This document shows positions 19,312 through 40,574 of a stretch of 64,000 nucleotides of DNA, in pieces (position 1 is the first letter of the stretch; each line of letters opens with the position of its first letter). Location: positions 1 through 64,000 of IMG/VR virus record IMGVR_UViG_3300041405_000166, one strand, 5' to 3'. The notes under the pieces were generated by a model. It worked only from the letters and a program-made list of their open reading frames with translations, had not been told where the DNA came from and made no database searches. Both the position numbers and the translations under genes were made by a program. This DNA comes from a virus.

Positions 19312-19722
19312 ATGAAGGTTGTCTACGTCGCAGGTCCATACCGCCACGCCACCCGCGCTGGCATCGAACTCAATATCCAGTCGTCGATGAAGGTCGGCTG
19401 CCTGGTCGCCCAGAAGGGCTATTCGCCGATCATCCCGCACATGAACACCGCGCACATGGACGAAGTCATTCGCCCAGGCGACGAGCAGTTTTGGTTGGAT
19501 GCCACCATGGAGCTGATGCGCCGCTGCGATGCAGTCGTCCTGTGCCCGGGTTGGCAGATGTCCAGCGGCACCATCGGCGAGATCATCGAAGCGGTTCGCC
19601 TGGAAATCCCAGTGTACGAATCAGTCGAGGTACTCCCTTGCCCGACGGTGTTCGTCCGTGCTCCGCGCATCCCGAAGTTCATCCAGCGCGCGATCAAACA
19701 GGAGCTCGCTGCCAATGGCTGA
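19312..19722 (+). CDS. DUF1937/DUF4406-like (nucleoside deoxyribosyltransferase-fold) protein
   Basis: VYVAGPY, PIIPH, RRCDAVVL.PGW..S.GT..E motifs. Confidence 0.7.
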   Translation: MKVVYVAGPYRHATRAGIELNIQSSMKVGCLVAQKGYSPIIPHMNTAHMDEVIRPGDEQFWLDATMELMRRCDAVVLCPGWQMSSGTIGEIIEAVRLEIPVYESVEVLPCPTVFVRAPRIPKFIQRAIKQELAANG

Positions 19723-21349
19723 ATACACGCTGCACCTGGGCGATTGCCTGGATGTCATGCGCACATTGCCGGACAACTCGGTTGACAGCGTGGTGACGGA
19801 TCCGCCTTACGCGTTCCCTGGCGGATTCATGGCTAAGGAATGGGACAACTTCGATGGTCGGGAGGATGCTGGCTTTGGTTATTGGCTTGCAGGCTTCACC
19901 GATGGCGAGGGGCATTTCCGTGTCCAGAAGCATGAGCGCGGATCTCATACTTGCGTGTTTCAGATCAAAACACGGGATGATGATCGAGCCGTTTTAGAAA
20001 GAATCAAACGTTTTCTTGGTGTAGGTGTTATCTACGACATGGAAGGGAGCGGAAATGCAAATCCTCAATGTGCGTATATTGTTCAAGACAAGGATGGTTG
20101 TGCACGTATTGTTGCTCTGTTTCGAAAATATCCGCTGACTGCGAAGAAAGCGAACGACTTTGAAATTTGGGCAGAGGCAGTAGAGGAATGGCTAGAACGT
20201 CCACGCGGCAATCGCTGGATAGGCACGTCTGATCAGACTCGAGCGGCCTCCCTAAAAGCTCGAATTGAAGATGTCCGTCGTTATACAGGTATCCCATGGT
20301 CAGGTCACAAGTTCCAGGACTGGGTTCGTCAGTGGGCAAGCGAAGCCCTACGAGTGCTCAAGCCTGGCGGCCATTTATTAGCGTTCGGATCTCCTCGACA
20401 ATATCATCGGCTCGCGTGCGGTATTGAGGATGCGGGCTTTGAAATCCGCGATCAAATCCTTTGGGTATTTGGAACAGGATTTCCGAAAAGTCATAATCTC
20501 AAGGGCGATCATGAAGGCTGGGGCACTGCATTAAAACCAGCGCATGAACCGATCTGTATGGCGCGCAAGCCATTCGCCGATACTGTAGCGATGAACATGG
20601 CCGAGCATGGAGTTGGTGCGCTTCATATCGATGCTTGCCGAGTCAGTACCAATGATGCGCTGGGCGGCGGCGATCAGAATGCAAAGCCCAAGGTGGTTTC
20701 CGAAGGATGGGATCGACCATGGATGCAGGACCCAGAGCAGAAGGCAGCGCATGCTGCGCGCGTAAACCAGAACGTGGCGAAAGCGGAGGATCTTGGGCGA
20801 TGGCCGGCGAACCTGATTCATGACGGTTGCGCCGAGGTTGTCGCAATGTTTCCGGCCGAGGCCGGTGCAGCTGCGCCTGTGCATACGCGTGGATCTGATA
20901 AATTCAGAACTGCCTACGGTGCCTTTAGCGGAAATATTGATGAGGCTGGCAGCACTTTTCACAATGACAGTGGCAGTGCCGCACGCTTTTTTTACTGCTC
21001 CAAGGCCAGCCGCACAGATCGCCACGAAGGGTTGCTGAATCCTGGCCCTCAGTTCAAGCAGGGCACCACCTTGCGCAATGTCCAGACGGCTGAGCTGAAA
21101 GGCAACACACACCCGACGGTCAAGCCCACTGACCTGATGGCCTATCTTCTGCGCCTGGTCACTCCACCAGGTGGAACAACGCTCGACATGTTCGTTGGCT
21201 CCGGCAGCACGGGCAAGGCCGCCATGCTGGAAGGCTTCGACTTCATCGGTATCGACAACGATAAATCCTATCTGGCGATGGCTGAAGCGCGCATCTTGTA
21301 CGCCCAGCAGTTCGCCAAGGATGAGTCGAGTCAACTCTCGCTGATCTGA
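19715..21349 (+). CDS. DNA methyltransferase (N6A/N4C, beta class) with in-frame LAGLIDADG domain
   Basis: GDCLDVM, VTDPPY, LRVLKPGG, HPTVKP, DMFVGSGSTG; insert begins YWLAGFTDGEG. Start ATG 19715 after AGGAG. Confidence 0.85.
   Translation: MAEYTLHLGDCLDVMRTLPDNSVDSVVTDPPYAFPGGFMAKEWDNFDGREDAGFGYWLAGFTDGEGHFRVQKHERGSHTCVFQIKTRDDDRAVLERIKRFLGVGVIYDMEGSGNANPQCAYIVQDKDGCARIVALFRKYPLTAKKANDFEIWAEAVEEWLERPRGNRWIGTSDQTRAASLKARIEDVRRYTGIPWSGHKFQDWVRQWASEALRVLKPGGHLLAFGSPRQYHRLACGIEDAGFEIRDQILWVFGTGFPKSHNLKGDHEGWGTALKPAHEPICMARKPFADTVAMNMAEHGVGALHIDACRVSTNDALGGGDQNAKPKVVSEGWDRPWMQDPEQKAAHAARVNQNVAKAEDLGRWPANLIHDGCAEVVAMFPAEAGAAAPVHTRGSDKFRTAYGAFSGNIDEAGSTFHNDSGSAARFFYCSKASRTDRHEGLLNPGPQFKQGTTLRNVQTAELKGNTHPTVKPTDLMAYLLRLVTPPGGTTLDMFVGSGSTGKAAMLEGFDFIGIDNDKSYLAMAEARILYAQQFAKDESSQLSLI
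19847..20311 (+). mobile_element. LAGLIDADG homing-endonuclease domain embedded in the MTase
   Basis: Single LAGLIDADG motif (LAGFTDGEG) plus LERIKRFLGVG and YPLTAKKANDF; visibly more AT-rich. Boundaries approximate. Confidence 0.75.
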
Positions 21350-34527: not shown

Positions 34528-36128
34528 AAAATACCAGGACACCAATTCCGGTTCACGAACCACAAATCAGCGTGCTGCTGCTGAAGAACGTGGCGCGTGA
34601 TTATGTCGCCGGTGGTGACGGGCTTGGCACTGAGGCGCCGGCTTCTGGTCGTTTCCAGGGCGTACAGAACCGAATCGATCTGACGCCATACCTGGGCGAA
34701 GGTGGTGGTGTCCGGACGGCCAAGGGTGTCCGTGAGCCGGCGGGAAGCTTCACGGTGACGCTGGCGGACAAGATGTTCAATGGCGACAGCGCGCAGATGG
34801 AATCGTTGTACGGGCTCATTGAACCGATGGATGTCATTGAGATCCGTATGGCCCATGCGCCGACGAGCCCTGGAGTGGTCGTTGAATACCAGGGTCTGGC
34901 GGAACAGTTGCCAATCATCATGCGCGGCTTCGTCACGTCACCGCGCCGGGTCGAAAGCATAGATCCTAGTGGACGGCCTCAGCGCTCGATCACTATCACG
35001 GGGATGGATTACGGCAAGCTGTGGCAGATTATTCAGATTCGCTACCTGGCCAACTACGTGTTGGGTCAGGAGCTGCTGACCACGCTGAAGTTTGCGCAGA
35101 ACTACGGGGTCAACTCGAACGTCGATTTCACGCCCAATCAGTTCATTTATGAGGTGGTGCAGAGCGTGTTGAATTCGTTCACCACGAACATGCGCACCAA
35201 CTCGGGCATGGGCTTCGACGAGATGGGCGACAGCAATAGCCCGGTGCGTGACATCGAGGTTTTCGACCTGACGGTGCCGGATGCGCGCGTGTCGGCCTTC
35301 GGGGCGAACAGCTTCTCTGGCGGCACGCTGTACCAGATGCTCTGCCACTATGGCGACGTGGGTCCGTGGAACGAGTTGTACATGGAAGACCGTGAGGATG
35401 GCGTGGCGATCGTCTACCGCCCCAACCCGTTTTTCACGCCAGGCAATGACCTGGTGAATCCGCCGGCGGATCCCTACGAGCCGCCGGATGGCGAAGGCTT
35501 CGTGCAGGGCCTGGGCATCGTCACCATCGAGATCACCGATATCGACGTGATCAGTCTGAACACCGGGCGATCGGACGCGAATCTGGCCAACTACTACTGG
35601 GTGGATAACCCGTCGTTCTCGCTGATCCAGGGCGAGACGCTGCGCCTGCAAGCAGCTGGGCTCAACCCTGAAACCTATTTCATCGAAAACTACCGCAACA
35701 GTGCCCCCTGGCTGTATGGCTTGCGCATGATGCAGGTGCAGACCAATCAGGGTGGCCGCTTCGACTCGCAGAAAGAGCAGGAGCTGCTGGCCGGAAAAGG
35801 CGCATTGCAGTCCTGGTTAGATGAGCGCCGGGCGATCCTGGTGGCCAACAACCGGGACAACGTCGTGTTCGAGAACGGCCAGATGGTGCTCAAGGGTAAC
35901 GAGCAGATCAAGGCCGGCATGTACCTGCGCCTGTGGCGGGGCAACATGTACGCTGATTACTACCTGACCCGGGTCGAGCATTCGTTTATGCCGTTCCGAT
36001 CATTCATCACCACGGTGACGTTCGAGCGCGGTACCGGGTTCATCGAGCGGGCCAAACGTGGCAATGGGTTGCAGTCGCCGTATCTGGCGGAACTGAATGG
36101 TGACGGTGTCTACAGGAGCGTCGAATGA
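34524..36128 (+). CDS. Baseplate hub protein
   Basis: 534 aa after the tape measure; ITGMDYGK and YYLTRVEHSF..TT motifs. Confidence 0.65.
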   Translation: MKNTRTPIPVHEPQISVLLLKNVARDYVAGGDGLGTEAPASGRFQGVQNRIDLTPYLGEGGGVRTAKGVREPAGSFTVTLADKMFNGDSAQMESLYGLIEPMDVIEIRMAHAPTSPGVVVEYQGLAEQLPIIMRGFVTSPRRVESIDPSGRPQRSITITGMDYGKLWQIIQIRYLANYVLGQELLTTLKFAQNYGVNSNVDFTPNQFIYEVVQSVLNSFTTNMRTNSGMGFDEMGDSNSPVRDIEVFDLTVPDARVSAFGANSFSGGTLYQMLCHYGDVGPWNELYMEDREDGVAIVYRPNPFFTPGNDLVNPPADPYEPPDGEGFVQGLGIVTIEITDIDVISLNTGRSDANLANYYWVDNPSFSLIQGETLRLQAAGLNPETYFIENYRNSAPWLYGLRMMQVQTNQGGRFDSQKEQELLAGKGALQSWLDERRAILVANNRDNVVFENGQMVLKGNEQIKAGMYLRLWRGNMYADYYLTRVEHSFMPFRSFITTVTFERGTGFIERAKRGNGLQSPYLAELNGDGVYRSVE

Positions 36129-36904
36129 ACGGCAGCGGAATCAGTCTTGCGAAGGTCACTCGCGTGGTCCCTGGTGGCCATGCTGTCGACTTGCTGTTCA
36201 TGGACACTGGCGATCGCGTACCAGCCGTGCAGGTGATGACCGGATATGCCAGTGGTGATACAGGTCTGGTTGACCTGGTGCAGCCAGACCAAGGCGAGGA
36301 CCAGTGGGACCCGAGCCGTATTGGCGAGCGTGAGGTAATCGCCTGCGTCAGCTATTACAAAAACATCCCGGTGGTGATCGGCTTCCTGTTTCCTCAGGTC
36401 TGCCAAATGCTCTTCGATCGGCAGAACTTCAAGGTGGACCGGCACGCATCGGACGTTTACACGACGACCGATAATGACGGCAATCACGAGCTGTTCCATC
36501 CGTCCGGCACCTATCTGCGCATCGGCACGGCGCCAGCGCATGAGGACCTGACCGGGTTGGACTTCGACAAGAAGTGGGCGATCACTAAGAACACCGACAA
36601 GGCCGTGCATGTGCATTTGTCGGTGCGCAATGCAGGCGCTGAGGTGGCCAGTCTGGATATCGATCCGGCGGGCAATGTCACCCTTGGGCATTCCGGCAAC
36701 TACACGCAGAACGTCGGTGGTGATTACGCGCTGATCGTGGCTGGAAACTCGTCCAAGAACGTGACCGGCTCGGAAACGCTCACGGCCGATACAGTGCAGA
36801 TCAACAGCACCACGCTCAAGCACAACACCAAAAACATCGGCGATACGCACACCCATGGTAGCGGTGCAGTGATCACGGGTATCACGCCGGTTCCAAACGC
36901 TTAG
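36125..36904 (+). CDS. Baseplate central spike (gpV-like)
   Basis: N-terminal OB-like region, beta-helix repeats, C-terminal HTH iron-binding motif. Confidence 0.75.
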   Translation: MNGSGISLAKVTRVVPGGHAVDLLFMDTGDRVPAVQVMTGYASGDTGLVDLVQPDQGEDQWDPSRIGEREVIACVSYYKNIPVVIGFLFPQVCQMLFDRQNFKVDRHASDVYTTTDNDGNHELFHPSGTYLRIGTAPAHEDLTGLDFDKKWAITKNTDKAVHVHLSVRNAGAEVASLDIDPAGNVTLGHSGNYTQNVGGDYALIVAGNSSKNVTGSETLTADTVQINSTTLKHNTKNIGDTHTHGSGAVITGITPVPNA

Positions 36905-37581
36905 CGTATCTGCGCCTGCGGGATAAACCCCGGAACCACCTGGCCGCCCACCGGAGCCTCGACGGCATAAACCCTGTCGTTCGGCTCCCCCGTCACGGTG
37001 ATCATGTCGCCGGCGAATACCGGAGCACAGCCATTCTCCTGGATCAACATCTTGGCCCCCAGCGAATCACCGGCATCAAGGCGCGACTGATACAGCTCGG
37101 CGGCGATCGCCTGGCGGCACATGAACACCGTTTTCGTCAGCACCGTGGCCGCCTGAGCAGGCATCAGGTCAGGTGCTGGGGTCAACATCGGGGTCATGAA
37201 GTAGCCATCAATAACCTGGTCGTTGACGTTGCGCATCAGGCCGCGGGTGGTGTCGCCTTGGACGTCGGTCACCACCACCACAAACCCTTTGGGTGCCTTG
37301 CCGCAATTGCCAGCTCGAACCGTGGATAGATAGCCAGGGTAATCCTCGGCCATGATGCGCGCCTTGGCGGCCATGGTGATCTGCGCATCAGGGCAGTAGA
37401 AGGTATCGCGGGCAACACGATACGCCTCGACATCATCTGCGGCCTGGGCCGGGGTGATCATGCTCACCAGGGCGAAGGCGAACAGCAACGCGCCAGCGAT
37501 GGCGAAGGGCGTTGTGAGAATCGTCCAGGCCCGCTGACGGCGAGCTTCGAGGACAGTGTTGCGAGTGGCCTGGGATTTCAT
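36901..37581 (-). CDS. Membrane-anchored/exported protein with two Cys-pair repeats
   Basis: N-terminal hydrophobic segment ending AQA; tandem C...GxC domains. Confidence 0.65.
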   Translation of the reverse strand: MKSQATRNTVLEARRQRAWTILTTPFAIAGALLFAFALVSMITPAQAADDVEAYRVARDTFYCPDAQITMAAKARIMAEDYPGYLSTVRAGNCGKAPKGFVVVVTDVQGDTTRGLMRNVNDQVIDGYFMTPMLTPAPDLMPAQAATVLTKTVFMCRQAIAAELYQSRLDAGDSLGAKMLIQENGCAPVFAGDMITVTGEPNDRVYAVEAPVGGQVVPGFIPQAQIR

Positions 37582-37641
37582 GATGCGTTACCTCTTCAGG
37601 TGTGTGGTCTTCGTGGTGGACGGGTTAGATTTTCAAGCAGC

Positions 37642-38487
37642 CTATGCTGGTACTGCCGAGTCTGCAGATTCCTCGTCATCAGTCGTGCCAGACAGAAACC
37701 CCATGATGATCGGGGCGACCGTGGTGGCCTTGGTCACCAGGAACAAATGCCCGTCGTCGATGACGTGCAAGGTGGCGTCAGGGATCAGTGCGGCGATCAG
37801 GCGCATATTGACCAGTGGGATGATCGGATCATCATTGCCAGCCAGCACCAGTGTTGGCTGCTTGATCCGGCGCAGCCAATGCAGACTGGTCCAGAACCAA
37901 ACGGCCATTCCTTGGTAGGCATAACCGCGGCCACCAGTGGATTGCATCTTGGCGGCGTGGCTAGCGGCCAGCGCCTTGTCGTGGCGGAAAACTCCACCGT
38001 AGATTTCCGGTGCGATTTTGGCGCCGTACTCGGGGTCGGTATAACGTCGCGGGCTGGACATCAGCGCCAAGACTTTCGGGGACGGCATGACGCTCAGGAT
38101 TCCAGTCGAAGTCGCCGCGAGAATCAGTTTTGTGCAGCGCTGCGGGTAATCATTGGCGAATTGCTGAGCCAGGAAACCGCCCCACGAAACACCAATGACA
38201 TTGACTTGGTCGTATGCCAGGCAATCCAGCATCTTGGCCACGGTCTTGGCCAGGCCGCTGAACGTGTAAGGCAGGCGTGGCGTGGATGAGCCACCTACGC
38301 CTGGCACGTCGAAGGCAATCACTTCCTGATCATGATCCAGGGCCTGCACGAACGGGATCACCAGCTCAAGGCTGGCACCGATGCCGTTGAGCACCAGCAG
38401 CGGGGTGAGGTTTGGATTGCCTGGGCGCACCGCTGTTCTGATGGACTGGCCATCGACCATGACAGTGCGGAAAACAAATTCTTTCAT
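37642..38487 (-). CDS. phaZ: Poly(3-hydroxyalkanoate) depolymerase (intracellular mcl-PHA type)
   Basis: IRTAVRPG..LTPLL..NGIGA.LEL, AFDVPGVGGSSTP, lipase box GVSWGG, DDPIIPLVNM, DDGHLFL; closely resembles Pseudomonas PhaZ. Confidence 0.92.
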   Translation of the reverse strand: MKEFVFRTVMVDGQSIRTAVRPGNPNLTPLLVLNGIGASLELVIPFVQALDHDQEVIAFDVPGVGGSSTPRLPYTFSGLAKTVAKMLDCLAYDQVNVIGVSWGGFLAQQFANDYPQRCTKLILAATSTGILSVMPSPKVLALMSSPRRYTDPEYGAKIAPEIYGGVFRHDKALAASHAAKMQSTGGRGYAYQGMAVWFWTSLHWLRRIKQPTLVLAGNDDPIIPLVNMRLIAALIPDATLHVIDDGHLFLVTKATTVAPIIMGFLSGTTDDEESADSAVPA

Positions 38488-38536
38488 CTCTGTTGCTCCA
38501 TGCTGCTCGGCGTGCCGGGCGTTTCGGGTTTTTGTG

Positions 38537-38779
38537 CTGGCGAAGCCCGCACTGGGCGGGCTTGCTGTTATTGATCGCTGCGGCGGCGACCTTTGTTTTG
38601 GCGTTTCAGTTGAGCGCCATCAAGGTCATCGGCGCTGGAATACCAGACCAATAGTCCAGTCCCGACAATAGCGAGGATGATGACGAGCGCCAAAATAAGC
38701 AGCGGGATTATTTGGTCAAGCATGGCGACTCCTTGGGTTGGGCTTCCTTGGTACTGGCGAAGCCCCGATTAAGGGGCTT
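38537..38779 (-). repeat. Two copies of hairpin element AAGCCC-N-GGGCTTCGCCAG (38537-38563, 38754-38779)
   Basis: Each copy lies just after a stop codon in the moron operon. Confidence 0.65.
38568..38723 (-). CDS. Small single-pass membrane protein, 51 aa (not in ORF track)
   Basis: MLDQIIPLLILALVIILAIVGTGLLVWY...KGRRRSDQ; AAGGAG RBS. Confidence 0.7.
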   Translation of the reverse strand: MLDQIIPLLILALVIILAIVGTGLLVWYSSADDLDGAQLKRQNKGRRRSDQ

Positions 38780-38796
38780 AAGGTGGTCGGGGTTGG

Positions 38797-39051
38797 TTAT
38801 GCCGGGAAAAAGGCGGTGCCGCGTGTGATCGTGTAATGAACCTCGAAGGTGCCGTCTGAGTGCAGCGCTACAAGGCGATGCGGCGCACCGTTCTTATAAA
38901 GGTTCGCTTGCTCTTCCAAAGCGGCCAAGCCTTGCACACGGTTACGCGGTTTGATGTCGTCTTTTTGCAGCCATTCGGCGTGCTTGCTGGCCTCTTCAAT
39001 GTTGGACCAGTTGCCGCCAAAAACTTGTTGAATCTGGATGCGGTATTTCAT
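38797..39051 (-). CDS. Hypothetical protein
   Basis: 84 aa, GGAG RBS. Confidence 0.7.
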   Translation of the reverse strand: MKYRIQIQQVFGGNWSNIEEASKHAEWLQKDDIKPRNRVQGLAALEEQANLYKNGAPHRLVALHSDGTFEVHYTITRGTAFFPA

Positions 39052-39065
39052 CGCGTCTTGCTCCG

Positions 39066-39293
39066 TTACTTTGTGCGTTTGTTGAACAGTGCGGTCGCCG
39101 CTTCGAGCGTCATTTGCTGCTCGACGTAGCGCCAGGTTTTCACGTCACGGCCTGCGACGTAGTTGACGCAGAGCTTCCACACGCCATAACCAGCATCCTC
39201 GCCCCAATGGTTGGTCGACTTCATCAGTGCGAAAGTCGATTTGCCAGACTTGTTGGCCTTGACGGAGATCTTGGTGTGGGCGGCTTTGGTCAT
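39066..39293 (-). CDS. Hypothetical protein
   Basis: 75 aa from ATG 39293, GGAG RBS; first gene after the promoter. Confidence 0.7.
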   Translation of the reverse strand: MTKAAHTKISVKANKSGKSTFALMKSTNHWGEDAGYGVWKLCVNYVAGRDVKTWRYVEQQMTLEAATALFNKRTK

Positions 39294-39331
39294 GGCGGTG
39301 GCTCCGTGTTGTTCGTCTTGGCTACAACTTA

Positions 39332-39360
39332 AATATATCCATAGCTGCACATCTTTGCAA
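39332..39360 (-). promoter_or_regulatory. Sigma70-like promoter of the phaZ moron
   Basis: TTGCAA-17 nt-TATATT. Confidence 0.7.
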
Positions 39361-39389
39361 CTACAGATACAAAGTAATTTCACCGCTTG

Positions 39390-39404
39390 TCGTGACAGCA
39401 CCAT
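39390..39404 (+). promoter_or_regulatory. Putative late promoter, leaderless
   Basis: TCGTGAC-ag-CACCAT, 6 nt before ATG 39411. Confidence 0.65.
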
Positions 39405-39410
39405 CCTGTC

Positions 39411-40574
39411 ATGAGCACACCATCGTCCCAGAAATCAGACGTCCGCCCGATCAGCTTCCTGCTCCAGGACCTGAGCAACGGCAACGACCTGACCAGCGTC
39501 CCACTGAACATCCGCCCAGCTGATCTGACGCGGGTCGAGCCGTCGCGCGCCTCGGTGCAGCAGACCCTCGGCGGGGCCTGGCTGGATAACTGGGGGCCCG
39601 GCATTCGCCAGGTGAACATCAACGGGCATACCGGCTGGCGTGGCAGCAACTATGAGGACGGCATGGAGCTGTTCCGGACGCTGAACAACACCGTATTCAA
39701 GAGCTGGCACGAGAAACGGCGCCTGGCGATCAGTGCCGGCCGGGATCCTGAGTTGATTCAGCTGATCTTCGCCGACCTGCTCGATGACTTCGTGTACGTG
39801 GTTGCCCCGATGAACTTCACGCTGCGCCGGAGCAAGCAGAGCCCGCTGCTGATGCAATACCAGATCAGCATGCTGGTGCTGTCTGAGGACTTGGTCGACC
39901 TGAAGAACAAGCTACGTCCGCCAGCGATCTTGCCGGGTGACATCGCGGTACCTGAGGCGCTGAAAACCCTGAGGGAGATCCTTGGACGAATCCGCAACTT
40001 TGCCACCAGCGTGGGTAACTTCATCAACGGCACCATTGGTGCAGCCGTCCGATCGTTCATGAACCTGACGGCCGATGTCCTGGCGGTGACGGTCGAGACG
40101 ATCAGTTCGCTCAAAGGTTCGTTTGATGAGGTTGCCGGTCCGCTGCTGTCGGTAGCCACCGACCTGGCCCAGGCCGGGCGCAACATCATGTGCACCGTCG
40201 CCACCGTGCAATCGCTGGGGACCTTCGTCAAATCCAGGATCATGGAAATCAGCGGGGCCTTCACCTACGCCTTGTGCCTGCTGAAAAACGCTTTTGGTGG
40301 CGGCAAGAAATACCCGGACTATTCCGACTGGTACGGCGCGAGCAACTGTTCGTCCATCTCAGGTGGTCGTCCGCTGTCGCCGCTGCGCTTCGAAAACCCG
40401 TTCTACAAACTGACGCCGAGTCCGAGCACGCCGATCACCCAGACACCAGAAGCGCGCAATTCCATGAAGCTGCTGGTAGGCATGGATGTGTTATCGACCA
40501 CGCCGACCATGGACATGGAGTCGAATATCCGCTCGGTGAATGACGGCACGGCTGTCGTTGAGGCTATCGCATGA
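39411..40574 (+). CDS. Baseplate/tail-associated structural protein
   Basis: QQTLGGAWLDNWG..INGHTG; first gene of the second baseplate operon. Confidence 0.6.
   Translation: MSTPSSQKSDVRPISFLLQDLSNGNDLTSVPLNIRPADLTRVEPSRASVQQTLGGAWLDNWGPGIRQVNINGHTGWRGSNYEDGMELFRTLNNTVFKSWHEKRRLAISAGRDPELIQLIFADLLDDFVYVVAPMNFTLRRSKQSPLLMQYQISMLVLSEDLVDLKNKLRPPAILPGDIAVPEALKTLREILGRIRNFATSVGNFINGTIGAAVRSFMNLTADVLAVTVETISSLKGSFDEVAGPLLSVATDLAQAGRNIMCTVATVQSLGTFVKSRIMEISGAFTYALCLLKNAFGGGKKYPDYSDWYGASNCSSISGGRPLSPLRFENPFYKLTPSPSTPITQTPEARNSMKLLVGMDVLSTTPTMDMESNIRSVNDGTAVVEAIA

Follow-up and report, generated by a model that had tools for sequence, protein, structure and literature searches.

What does a phage gain from a gene for an intracellular-type PHA depolymerase, phaZ, when its genome encodes no PHA synthase? 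Under nutrient limitation, PHA can account for a considerable part of the dry mass of Pseudomonas cells. The PhaZ of P. putida sits on the PHA granule and releases 3-hydroxyacid monomers, which either enter beta-oxidation or are re-polymerised (PMC4834554). The gene analysed here lies in a window of 64,000 nucleotides, positions 1 to 64,000 of the IMG/VR record IMGVR_UViG_3300041405_000166, and coordinates refer to this window unless stated otherwise. The whole record is 90,791 bp long, has direct terminal repeats and is 100% complete according to CheckV. No members of the phaC (PhaC_N, PF07167), phasin or AMP-binding (FadD-type) acyl-CoA synthetase families were detected in this complete genome.

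The virion genes of the phage are found on both sides of the phaZ locus and include those for a head protease, the major capsid protein, the tail sheath, a lytic tail protein, tube and sheath initiators and baseplate wedge proteins. The sheath is 66% identical to that of Bordetella phage PHB04 and 58% identical to those of Pseudomonas phages Touem01, Dolphis and Jeremy. Identity of the capsid protein to those of the nearest cultured relatives, which are myoviruses of 90–95 kb, is 47–52%. The tyrosine integrase family is absent from the complete genome, so a virulent lifestyle is likely, and the phage is probably a virulent myovirus of ~91 kb. A megablast search with the 16 kb around phaZ retrieved no match among GenBank phages. 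Of the 401 genomes of the phylum that were sampled, only those of the Pseudomonas type yielded full-scoring members of the PhaZ family, and the best 80 genome matches belonged nearly all to Pseudomonas and genera split off from it, such as Metapseudomonas and Ectopseudomonas. On these two grounds the host is most likely a member of Pseudomonadaceae; the closest cultured backbone by sheath identity infects Bordetella. The GC content of phaZ is 58.7%, compared with 58.8% for the phage genome and 61–69% for Pseudomonas phaZ genes.

The phaZ product matched the NCBIfam equivalog profile TIGR02240, poly(3-hydroxyalkanoate) depolymerase, with an E-value of 1.9e-127; the score of 424.4 bits exceeds the cut-off of 250.6, and the match spans profile positions 2–264 of 276. 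A six-frame search of the genome gave 423.8 bits. The second-best NCBIfam profile, for a PcaD-type enol-lactonase, reached only 122 bits. Pfam retrieved a complete Abhydrolase_1 domain (7e-36), and PHROGs assigned the protein only the label 'esterase/lipase' (phrog_789). In a BLASTP alignment with the P. putida PhaZ (Q8KQ22), identity was 67% over 265 residues with no gaps. A structural homology search with the phage protein retrieved only generic alpha/beta hydrolases, with at most 30% identity in the PDB and at most 22% in BFVD.

The closest known system is PhaZKT of P. putida KT2440/KT2442, a member of TIGR02240, for which a 2025 study described a catalytic triad of Ser102, Asp221 and His248, a lid spanning residues 133–192, an FNGIG loop, an essential Asn35 and a YYWQLF hinge (residues 190–195) that is needed for activity (PMC12504323). 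The phage protein contains the motifs GVSWGG (Ser101), NDDPII (Asp220) and DDGHLF (His247), and these three residues align without gaps with the PhaZKT triad, with an offset of one residue. The equivalents of Asn35 (Asn34) and Ser184 (Ser183) are retained, while the loop reads LNGIG instead of FNGIG. The lid, at approximately residues 132–191, has the same length as in PhaZKT: all 60 positions align without gaps, and 32 are identical. An AlphaFold model (pLDDT 88.5, pTM 0.89) displayed an alpha/beta-hydrolase core with a helical lid (helices 137–197) and an acidic, disordered C-terminal tail. The alignment with the intracellular PhaZKT begins at residue 2, with neither an N-terminal extension nor a hydrophobic leader; the phage PhaZ is therefore like PhaZKT in lacking any N-terminal signal and is predicted to be a cytoplasmic enzyme. 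A preliminary description of this DNA, made from the letters alone, had proposed a full-length PhaZ with serine, aspartate and histidine motifs, and the open reading frame, the TIGR02240 match, the three motifs and the gap-free triad bear this out.

The phage protein also departs from PhaZKT in several respects. Its hinge reads YAYQGM in place of YYWQLF, which is present in 40 of the 42 bacterial sequences aligned, and the hinge is variable among phage copies (YKLQGM, YYYQMA and others). Its TIGR02240 score, 424 bits, is lower than the ~610 bits obtained for Pseudomonas PhaZ. It carries the acidic disordered tail, is not flanked by phaC1 and phaC2, falls outside the Pseudomonadaceae clade and differs at eight diagnostic positions (see below). 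The triad is nevertheless invariant in all 38 phage or metagenome sequences and in the 42 bacterial ones, and Asn35 is invariant in the former 38.

In the genome, phaZ is the fourth gene of a five-gene minus-strand cassette (39292/39404 down to 36901) located within a plus-strand tail/baseplate operon (Table 1). The start of the first cassette gene was placed at 39292, where a GGAGC ribosome-binding site (RBS) and ATGACC are the ones conserved in G009, a related phage genome from IMG/VR. The 226-aa protein encoded by the last gene retrieved no match in Pfam, PHROGs or NCBIfam. A language-model comparison indicated a weak likeness of this protein to Sap1 surface-attachment proteins (score 0.90, 164 shared features). 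We rejected it as part of a PhaZ system, as the Sap1-like lead is weak and there is no linkage to phaZ in G009.

Table 1. Features of the phaZ locus, with positions in the window.
Feature	Position	Strand	Remarks
Left flank, tail/baseplate-module gene	36125..36904	+	Orthologue of PHB04 gp006
Cassette gene 5, 226-aa protein	36901..37581	-	N-terminal signal or anchor; 60 nt downstream of phaZ
Segment without counterpart at the G009 site	37600..38567	.	Hairpin and phaZ; ~1 kb
phaZ CDS (cassette gene 4)	37642..38487	-	281 aa, ATG start; intracellular-type mcl-PHA depolymerase homologue
RBS GGAG	38496..38499	-	8 nt before the phaZ ATG
GC-rich 8-bp hairpin	38543..38563	-	In the gap between phaZ and the 51-aa gene; not followed by a U-tract on the coding strand; within the segment absent from G009
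Cassette gene 3, 51-aa single-pass membrane protein	38568..38723	-	Directly upstream of phaZ; G009 orthologue of 52 aa
Cassette gene 2, 84-aa ORF	38797..39051	-	No family match
Cassette gene 1	39066..39292	-	Mechanical ORF reaches 39404; no family match
Sigma-70-like match TTGCAA-17-TATATT, 9/12	39332..39360	-	Cassette head, 845 nt upstream of phaZ; candidate promoter
Right flank, tail-tube-initiator-like virion protein	39411..40574	+	Orthologue of PHB04 gp005; 90% identical in G009

Two comparisons indicate how phaZ reached this position. Only 43 bp separate the orthologues of the two plus-strand flanking genes in PHB04, and Dolphis also lacks the cassette, so the 2.5-kb cassette is an insertion relative to these two phages. 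The G009 genome (a record of 85,776 bp with terminal repeats) is collinear with this one at ~75–88% nucleotide identity and carries the genes for the 52-aa membrane protein and the 226-aa protein as neighbours, with no phaZ and 234 bp of unrelated sequence between them. Going downstream, the two genomes are homologous up to a point just past the 51-aa gene's stop codon, and they align again from the RBS of the 226-aa gene onwards. Therefore, phaZ and the hairpin preceding it constitute a ~1-kb single-gene indel in an older accessory cassette. The term moron, used in the preliminary description, is consistent with this moron-like insertion.

G009 encodes a PhaZ of its own (303 aa; positions 38737–40043 of its record), at another site and in the opposite orientation relative to the backbone. 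This second site lies between the orthologues of genes found in our phage at 65649–66371 and 66735–67082 of the complete record, beyond the window; here the site is empty (66371–66735), and the two genes are 364 bp apart. Together, the two synteny comparisons reveal reciprocal empty sites, each sister phage lacking phaZ where the other has it. In G009, phaZ adjoins a 132-aa cysteine-rich (zinc-finger-like) ORF. The two PhaZ proteins are ~72–74% identical, and the backbone proteins compared are 71–96% identical, with 96% for the primase/helicase and 90% for the tail gene beside the cassette. In a careful tree, the PhaZ of the window was placed in a subgroup (support 90/92) that excludes the PhaZ of G009. 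An AU test of a hypothesis that came from synteny, carried out after a quick tree had been inspected, rejected the two proteins as sisters (lnL difference 28.8, p=0.016). The two sister phages acquired non-sister phaZ genes independently at two sites.

We then compared the distribution of the gene across phages. Among 50,697 GenBank phage records, close homologues were found only in Ralstonia phages RP12 and RP31, with 49% identity. A profile-guided scan of IMG/VR retrieved 50 PhaZ loci with 36–75% identity, on at least 10 backbones ranging from 48 to 307 kb. The suggestion that phaZ is not a common phage gene thus holds for GenBank phages and fails to describe IMG/VR, where the gene recurs on many backbones. 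The flanks of these loci have only phaZ in common with the window, except for one locus, L014, which is G009. The loci comprise ~20 siphovirus contigs, several groups of 48–54 kb, three genomes of 85–86 kb, a pair of 104 kb and three jumbo genomes. Their neighbours are phage genes, encoding RecE-like exonuclease, methyltransferase, helicase, ligase, thymidylate synthase and virion proteins. PhaC_N was found in none of 31 PhaZ-carrying viral records (this genome and 30 others), 16 of which are at least 90% complete, whereas in control Pseudomonas genomes phaZ is flanked by phaC on both sides. The preliminary description had set a phage phaZ without phaC against the Pseudomonas arrangement between phaC1 and phaC2, and this contrast was confirmed.

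Some of these loci show features of their own. In the ~20 siphovirus contigs (L002, L003, L017–L031, L035 and L045), phaZ is reversed between the major-capsid/decoration and head-tail connector genes, where morons are classically found, and small variable ORFs often come after it. The jumbo genomes L033, L034 and L036 (307, 228 and 284 kb, respectively) are complete and carry PhaZ. In L034, eight consecutive ORFs of ~310 aa, possibly paralogues, lie beside phaZ.

The cultured-phage homologues, RP12 ORF269 and RP31 ORF266, were listed in passing as 'poly(3-hydroxyalkanoate) depolymerase', with no analysis (Matsui et al. 2017, PMC5468394). In RefSeq they are named 'esterase/lipase'. Like the phaZ studied here, they are single genes without phaC, and they are the only close homologues in cultured phages. 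In contrast, they lie on a deep, long branch and belong to phiKZ-like jumbo phages of a betaproteobacterium. The RP12 gene (L004/L049) is located at 256412–257227 of its record, and the host is Ralstonia solanacearum. Ralstonia is known to store PHB rather than mcl-PHA. The presence of the gene in a phage of a PHB-storing host raises the question of the substrate of the deep-branching phage copies.

The preliminary description had proposed a phylogeny against host PhaZ, and in our trees the phage copies were not nested in the Pseudomonadaceae clade. In a first tree of 92 sequences, with relatives scoring below the cut-off as outgroup, all 42 Pseudomonadaceae PhaZ fell into one clade (SH-aLRT 97), which includes Halopseudomonas, Zestomonas and Atopomonas. 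Phage and unnamed metagenome sequences were placed outside this clade, on longer branches, with RP12 and one other sequence deeper still. The careful tree, of 38 sequences, separated bacterial from phage PhaZ with support of 100/95. Eight substitutions, defined as positions where at least 95% of bacterial sequences have one residue and the phage copies another, are diagnostic of the phage group (N40S, A106F, G136P, K137S, S154E, V182M, G197V and D219N in PhaZKT numbering). Phage PhaZ is under purifying selection: dN/dS (NG86) was 0.10–0.17 in six phage pairs with dS of 0.19–1.0, and 0.13–0.18 in the window's own pairs, which are saturated (dS >1). The position in the tree, the GC content and the dN/dS values speak against recent acquisition from the pha cluster of a host and favour a phage-resident lineage maintained by selection.

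With regard to expression, the preliminary description had assigned the phaZ moron a sigma70 promoter of its own, which did not hold as stated. A consensus scan found no sigma-70-like site within 80 nt upstream of phaZ, and the only candidate is a putative promoter of the whole cassette (39360–39332), whose -35 hexamer and surroundings are conserved in G009. Another site, 38719–38692, was rejected as a phaZ promoter since it falls within the 51-aa ORF and lacks conservation in G009. The region contains three sigma-70 consensus matches versus 1.1 expected by chance, which is weak evidence for promoters. No terminator was found between phaZ and the 226-aa gene, so the two are probably co-transcribed. 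Two similar GC-rich hairpins (AAGCCC...GGGCTT) occur on the minus strand at 38537–38563 and 38754–38786, each immediately after a stop codon and followed by CGCCAG. The 12-mer GGGCTTCGCCAG has exact copies in the window only at these two hairpins, which may mark transcript ends or processing sites in the cassette.

Taken as a whole, we consider it fairly probable that phaZ encodes an active, cytoplasmic, lid-bearing serine esterase of the PhaZ family, that it belongs to a phage-mobile lineage and was inserted as a single gene, and that it serves to mobilise host PHA during infection. An auxiliary metabolic role is a reasonable inference from the retention of the gene, the selection acting on it and its repeated acquisition. 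The existence of a distinct lineage in many unrelated phages suggests that phages tap the PHA store during infection. In such a scheme, the phage enzyme would bind to the PHA granules of the infected host and release (R)-3-hydroxyalkanoic acids by hydrolysis of the polyester. From these monomers, the acyl-CoA synthetase and beta-oxidation of the host would then produce acetyl-CoA and reducing power, which would fuel phage replication in carbon-loaded, nutrient-starved cells. A depolymerase delivered without a synthase would tip the PHA cycle towards mobilisation. Since the phage lacks an acyl-CoA synthetase, and also phasin, the process would depend fully on host enzymes.

A more far-reaching version of this proposal, which we put forward tentatively and hold to be possible though somewhat doubtful, is that an old phage-resident PhaZ has travelled from phage to phage between unrelated backbones as different as those of siphoviruses and 300-kb jumbo phages, being picked up repeatedly because it pays. 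Under this version, the altered hinge would make the enzyme a deregulated depolymerase that uses up the PHA granules of the host and fuels replication in starved, carbon-loaded cells. Phages would then act as an unrecognised sink for bacterial storage polyester in PHA bioreactors, soil and the rhizosphere.

Two known systems provide points of comparison for host-PHA mobilisation by a phage. PhaZBd of Bdellovibrio bacteriovorus HD100 is likewise an mcl-PHA depolymerase that an invader brings along against the PHA of Pseudomonas (PMC4834554). However, PhaZBd is of the extracellular type and belongs to another depolymerase class, its bearer is a cellular predator and its activity was demonstrated experimentally. 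On the other hand, PHA-synthesis genes (phaC, phbB, fadD and others) have been described in phages of PHA-producing mixed cultures and, as here, phage genes of the PHA pathway were read as auxiliary (Yao et al. 2025, PMC12013262). Those genes represent the synthesis side of the pathway, and neither a depolymerase nor phaZ is mentioned anywhere in that study.

The assignment of the substrate is where the main reading meets a competitor, in which the enzymes of the phage clade have come to act as general esterases/lipases on some other ester, such as a lipid, a small-molecule ester or an acylated surface polymer; 'esterase/lipase' is also the only label under which PHROGs files the protein. Of the eight clade-specific substitutions, A106F lies by the nucleophile elbow and G136P and K137S at the start of the lid; the hinge is variable, the TIGR02240 score is below that of bacterial PhaZ and the host of RP12 stores PHB. 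Furthermore, a single mutation in the lid hinge is enough to make PhaZKT lose its depolymerase activity and gain in esterase activity (PMC12504323), so the substrate range or regulation may have changed. Nevertheless, the score of the phage protein is far above the equivalog cut-off, the high identity to PhaZKT comes without any indel in the lid, the essential asparagine and the triad are conserved throughout the phage and metagenome copies, and no solved esterase structure exceeds 30% identity. Such a drift to another substrate is therefore unlikely in our view. Alternatively, PHA might be degraded for a gain other than energy, such as clearing granules that hinder assembly or lysis, or perturbing PHA-linked stress physiology. 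This would draw on the same sequence evidence as energy supply; no gene in the genome extends the catabolic pathway, and a cassette of small membrane and secreted proteins is typical of host-interaction morons. These cassette neighbours, however, are unlinked to phaZ in G009 and in the other backbones, and we also judge this explanation improbable.

The remaining two explanations deny the gene a role or a place in the phage. Morons can hitch-hike, and phaZ is absent from the cultured relatives of this phage, as would be expected of a neutral passenger recently picked up from a host pha cluster. Such a passenger would hardly fall outside the bacterial clade, share the GC content of the phage rather than that of Pseudomonas phaZ, have a dN/dS well below 1, occur as non-sister copies at two sites in sister phages and be kept by many complete phages, which makes this explanation very unlikely. 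As the record is metagenome-derived, an assembly chimera or host contamination at the locus also has to be considered, and the preliminary description had raised the former. On both sides of the locus, gene order follows that of G009, PHB04 and Dolphis, each junction coincides exactly with a gene boundary, the composition is uniform and the direct terminal repeats are in place; the probability of an artefact is thus negligible.

Neither the protein family nor the idea of auxiliary metabolic genes is new, and the RP12/RP31 homologue received its name in 2017. Our literature search found no analysis of a phage PhaZ, the only items being the RP12/RP31 listing (PMC5468394) and a PHB depolymerase in a Gloeobacter prophage, and no paper on phages handling or using PHA. 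Neither the phage PhaZ lineage, nor its spread over many backbones, nor any test of its role was found in the literature searched. The present analysis adds the comparison of sister phages with reciprocal empty phaZ sites. Should phages indeed mobilise host PHA through PhaZ, the raiding of carbon stores would join the list of functions of phage auxiliary genes. A testable prediction concerns burst size in PHA-loaded versus PHA-free hosts. The gene may be relevant to phage losses in industrial PHA production, and the phage copies provide natural lid variants of an enzyme under engineering for bioplastic recycling.

Two additional observations were made in the window. The heptamer TCGTGAC was considered as a late-promoter motif and rejected, as it has no minus-strand copy near the cassette and its 14 copies in the window do not exceed the chance expectation (a mean of 10 in shuffled sequences, with 14 reached in 12 of 100). 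Thirteen of the 14 copies are on the plus strand, several of them just before gene starts, such as the one at 39390 before the gene at 39411. Finally, a plus-strand gene at 19529–21349 encodes a DNA methyltransferase (phrog_67) in which residues ~119–246 weakly match an HNH-endonuclease PHROG, which suggests that an endonuclease domain has been inserted in-frame in the methyltransferase.
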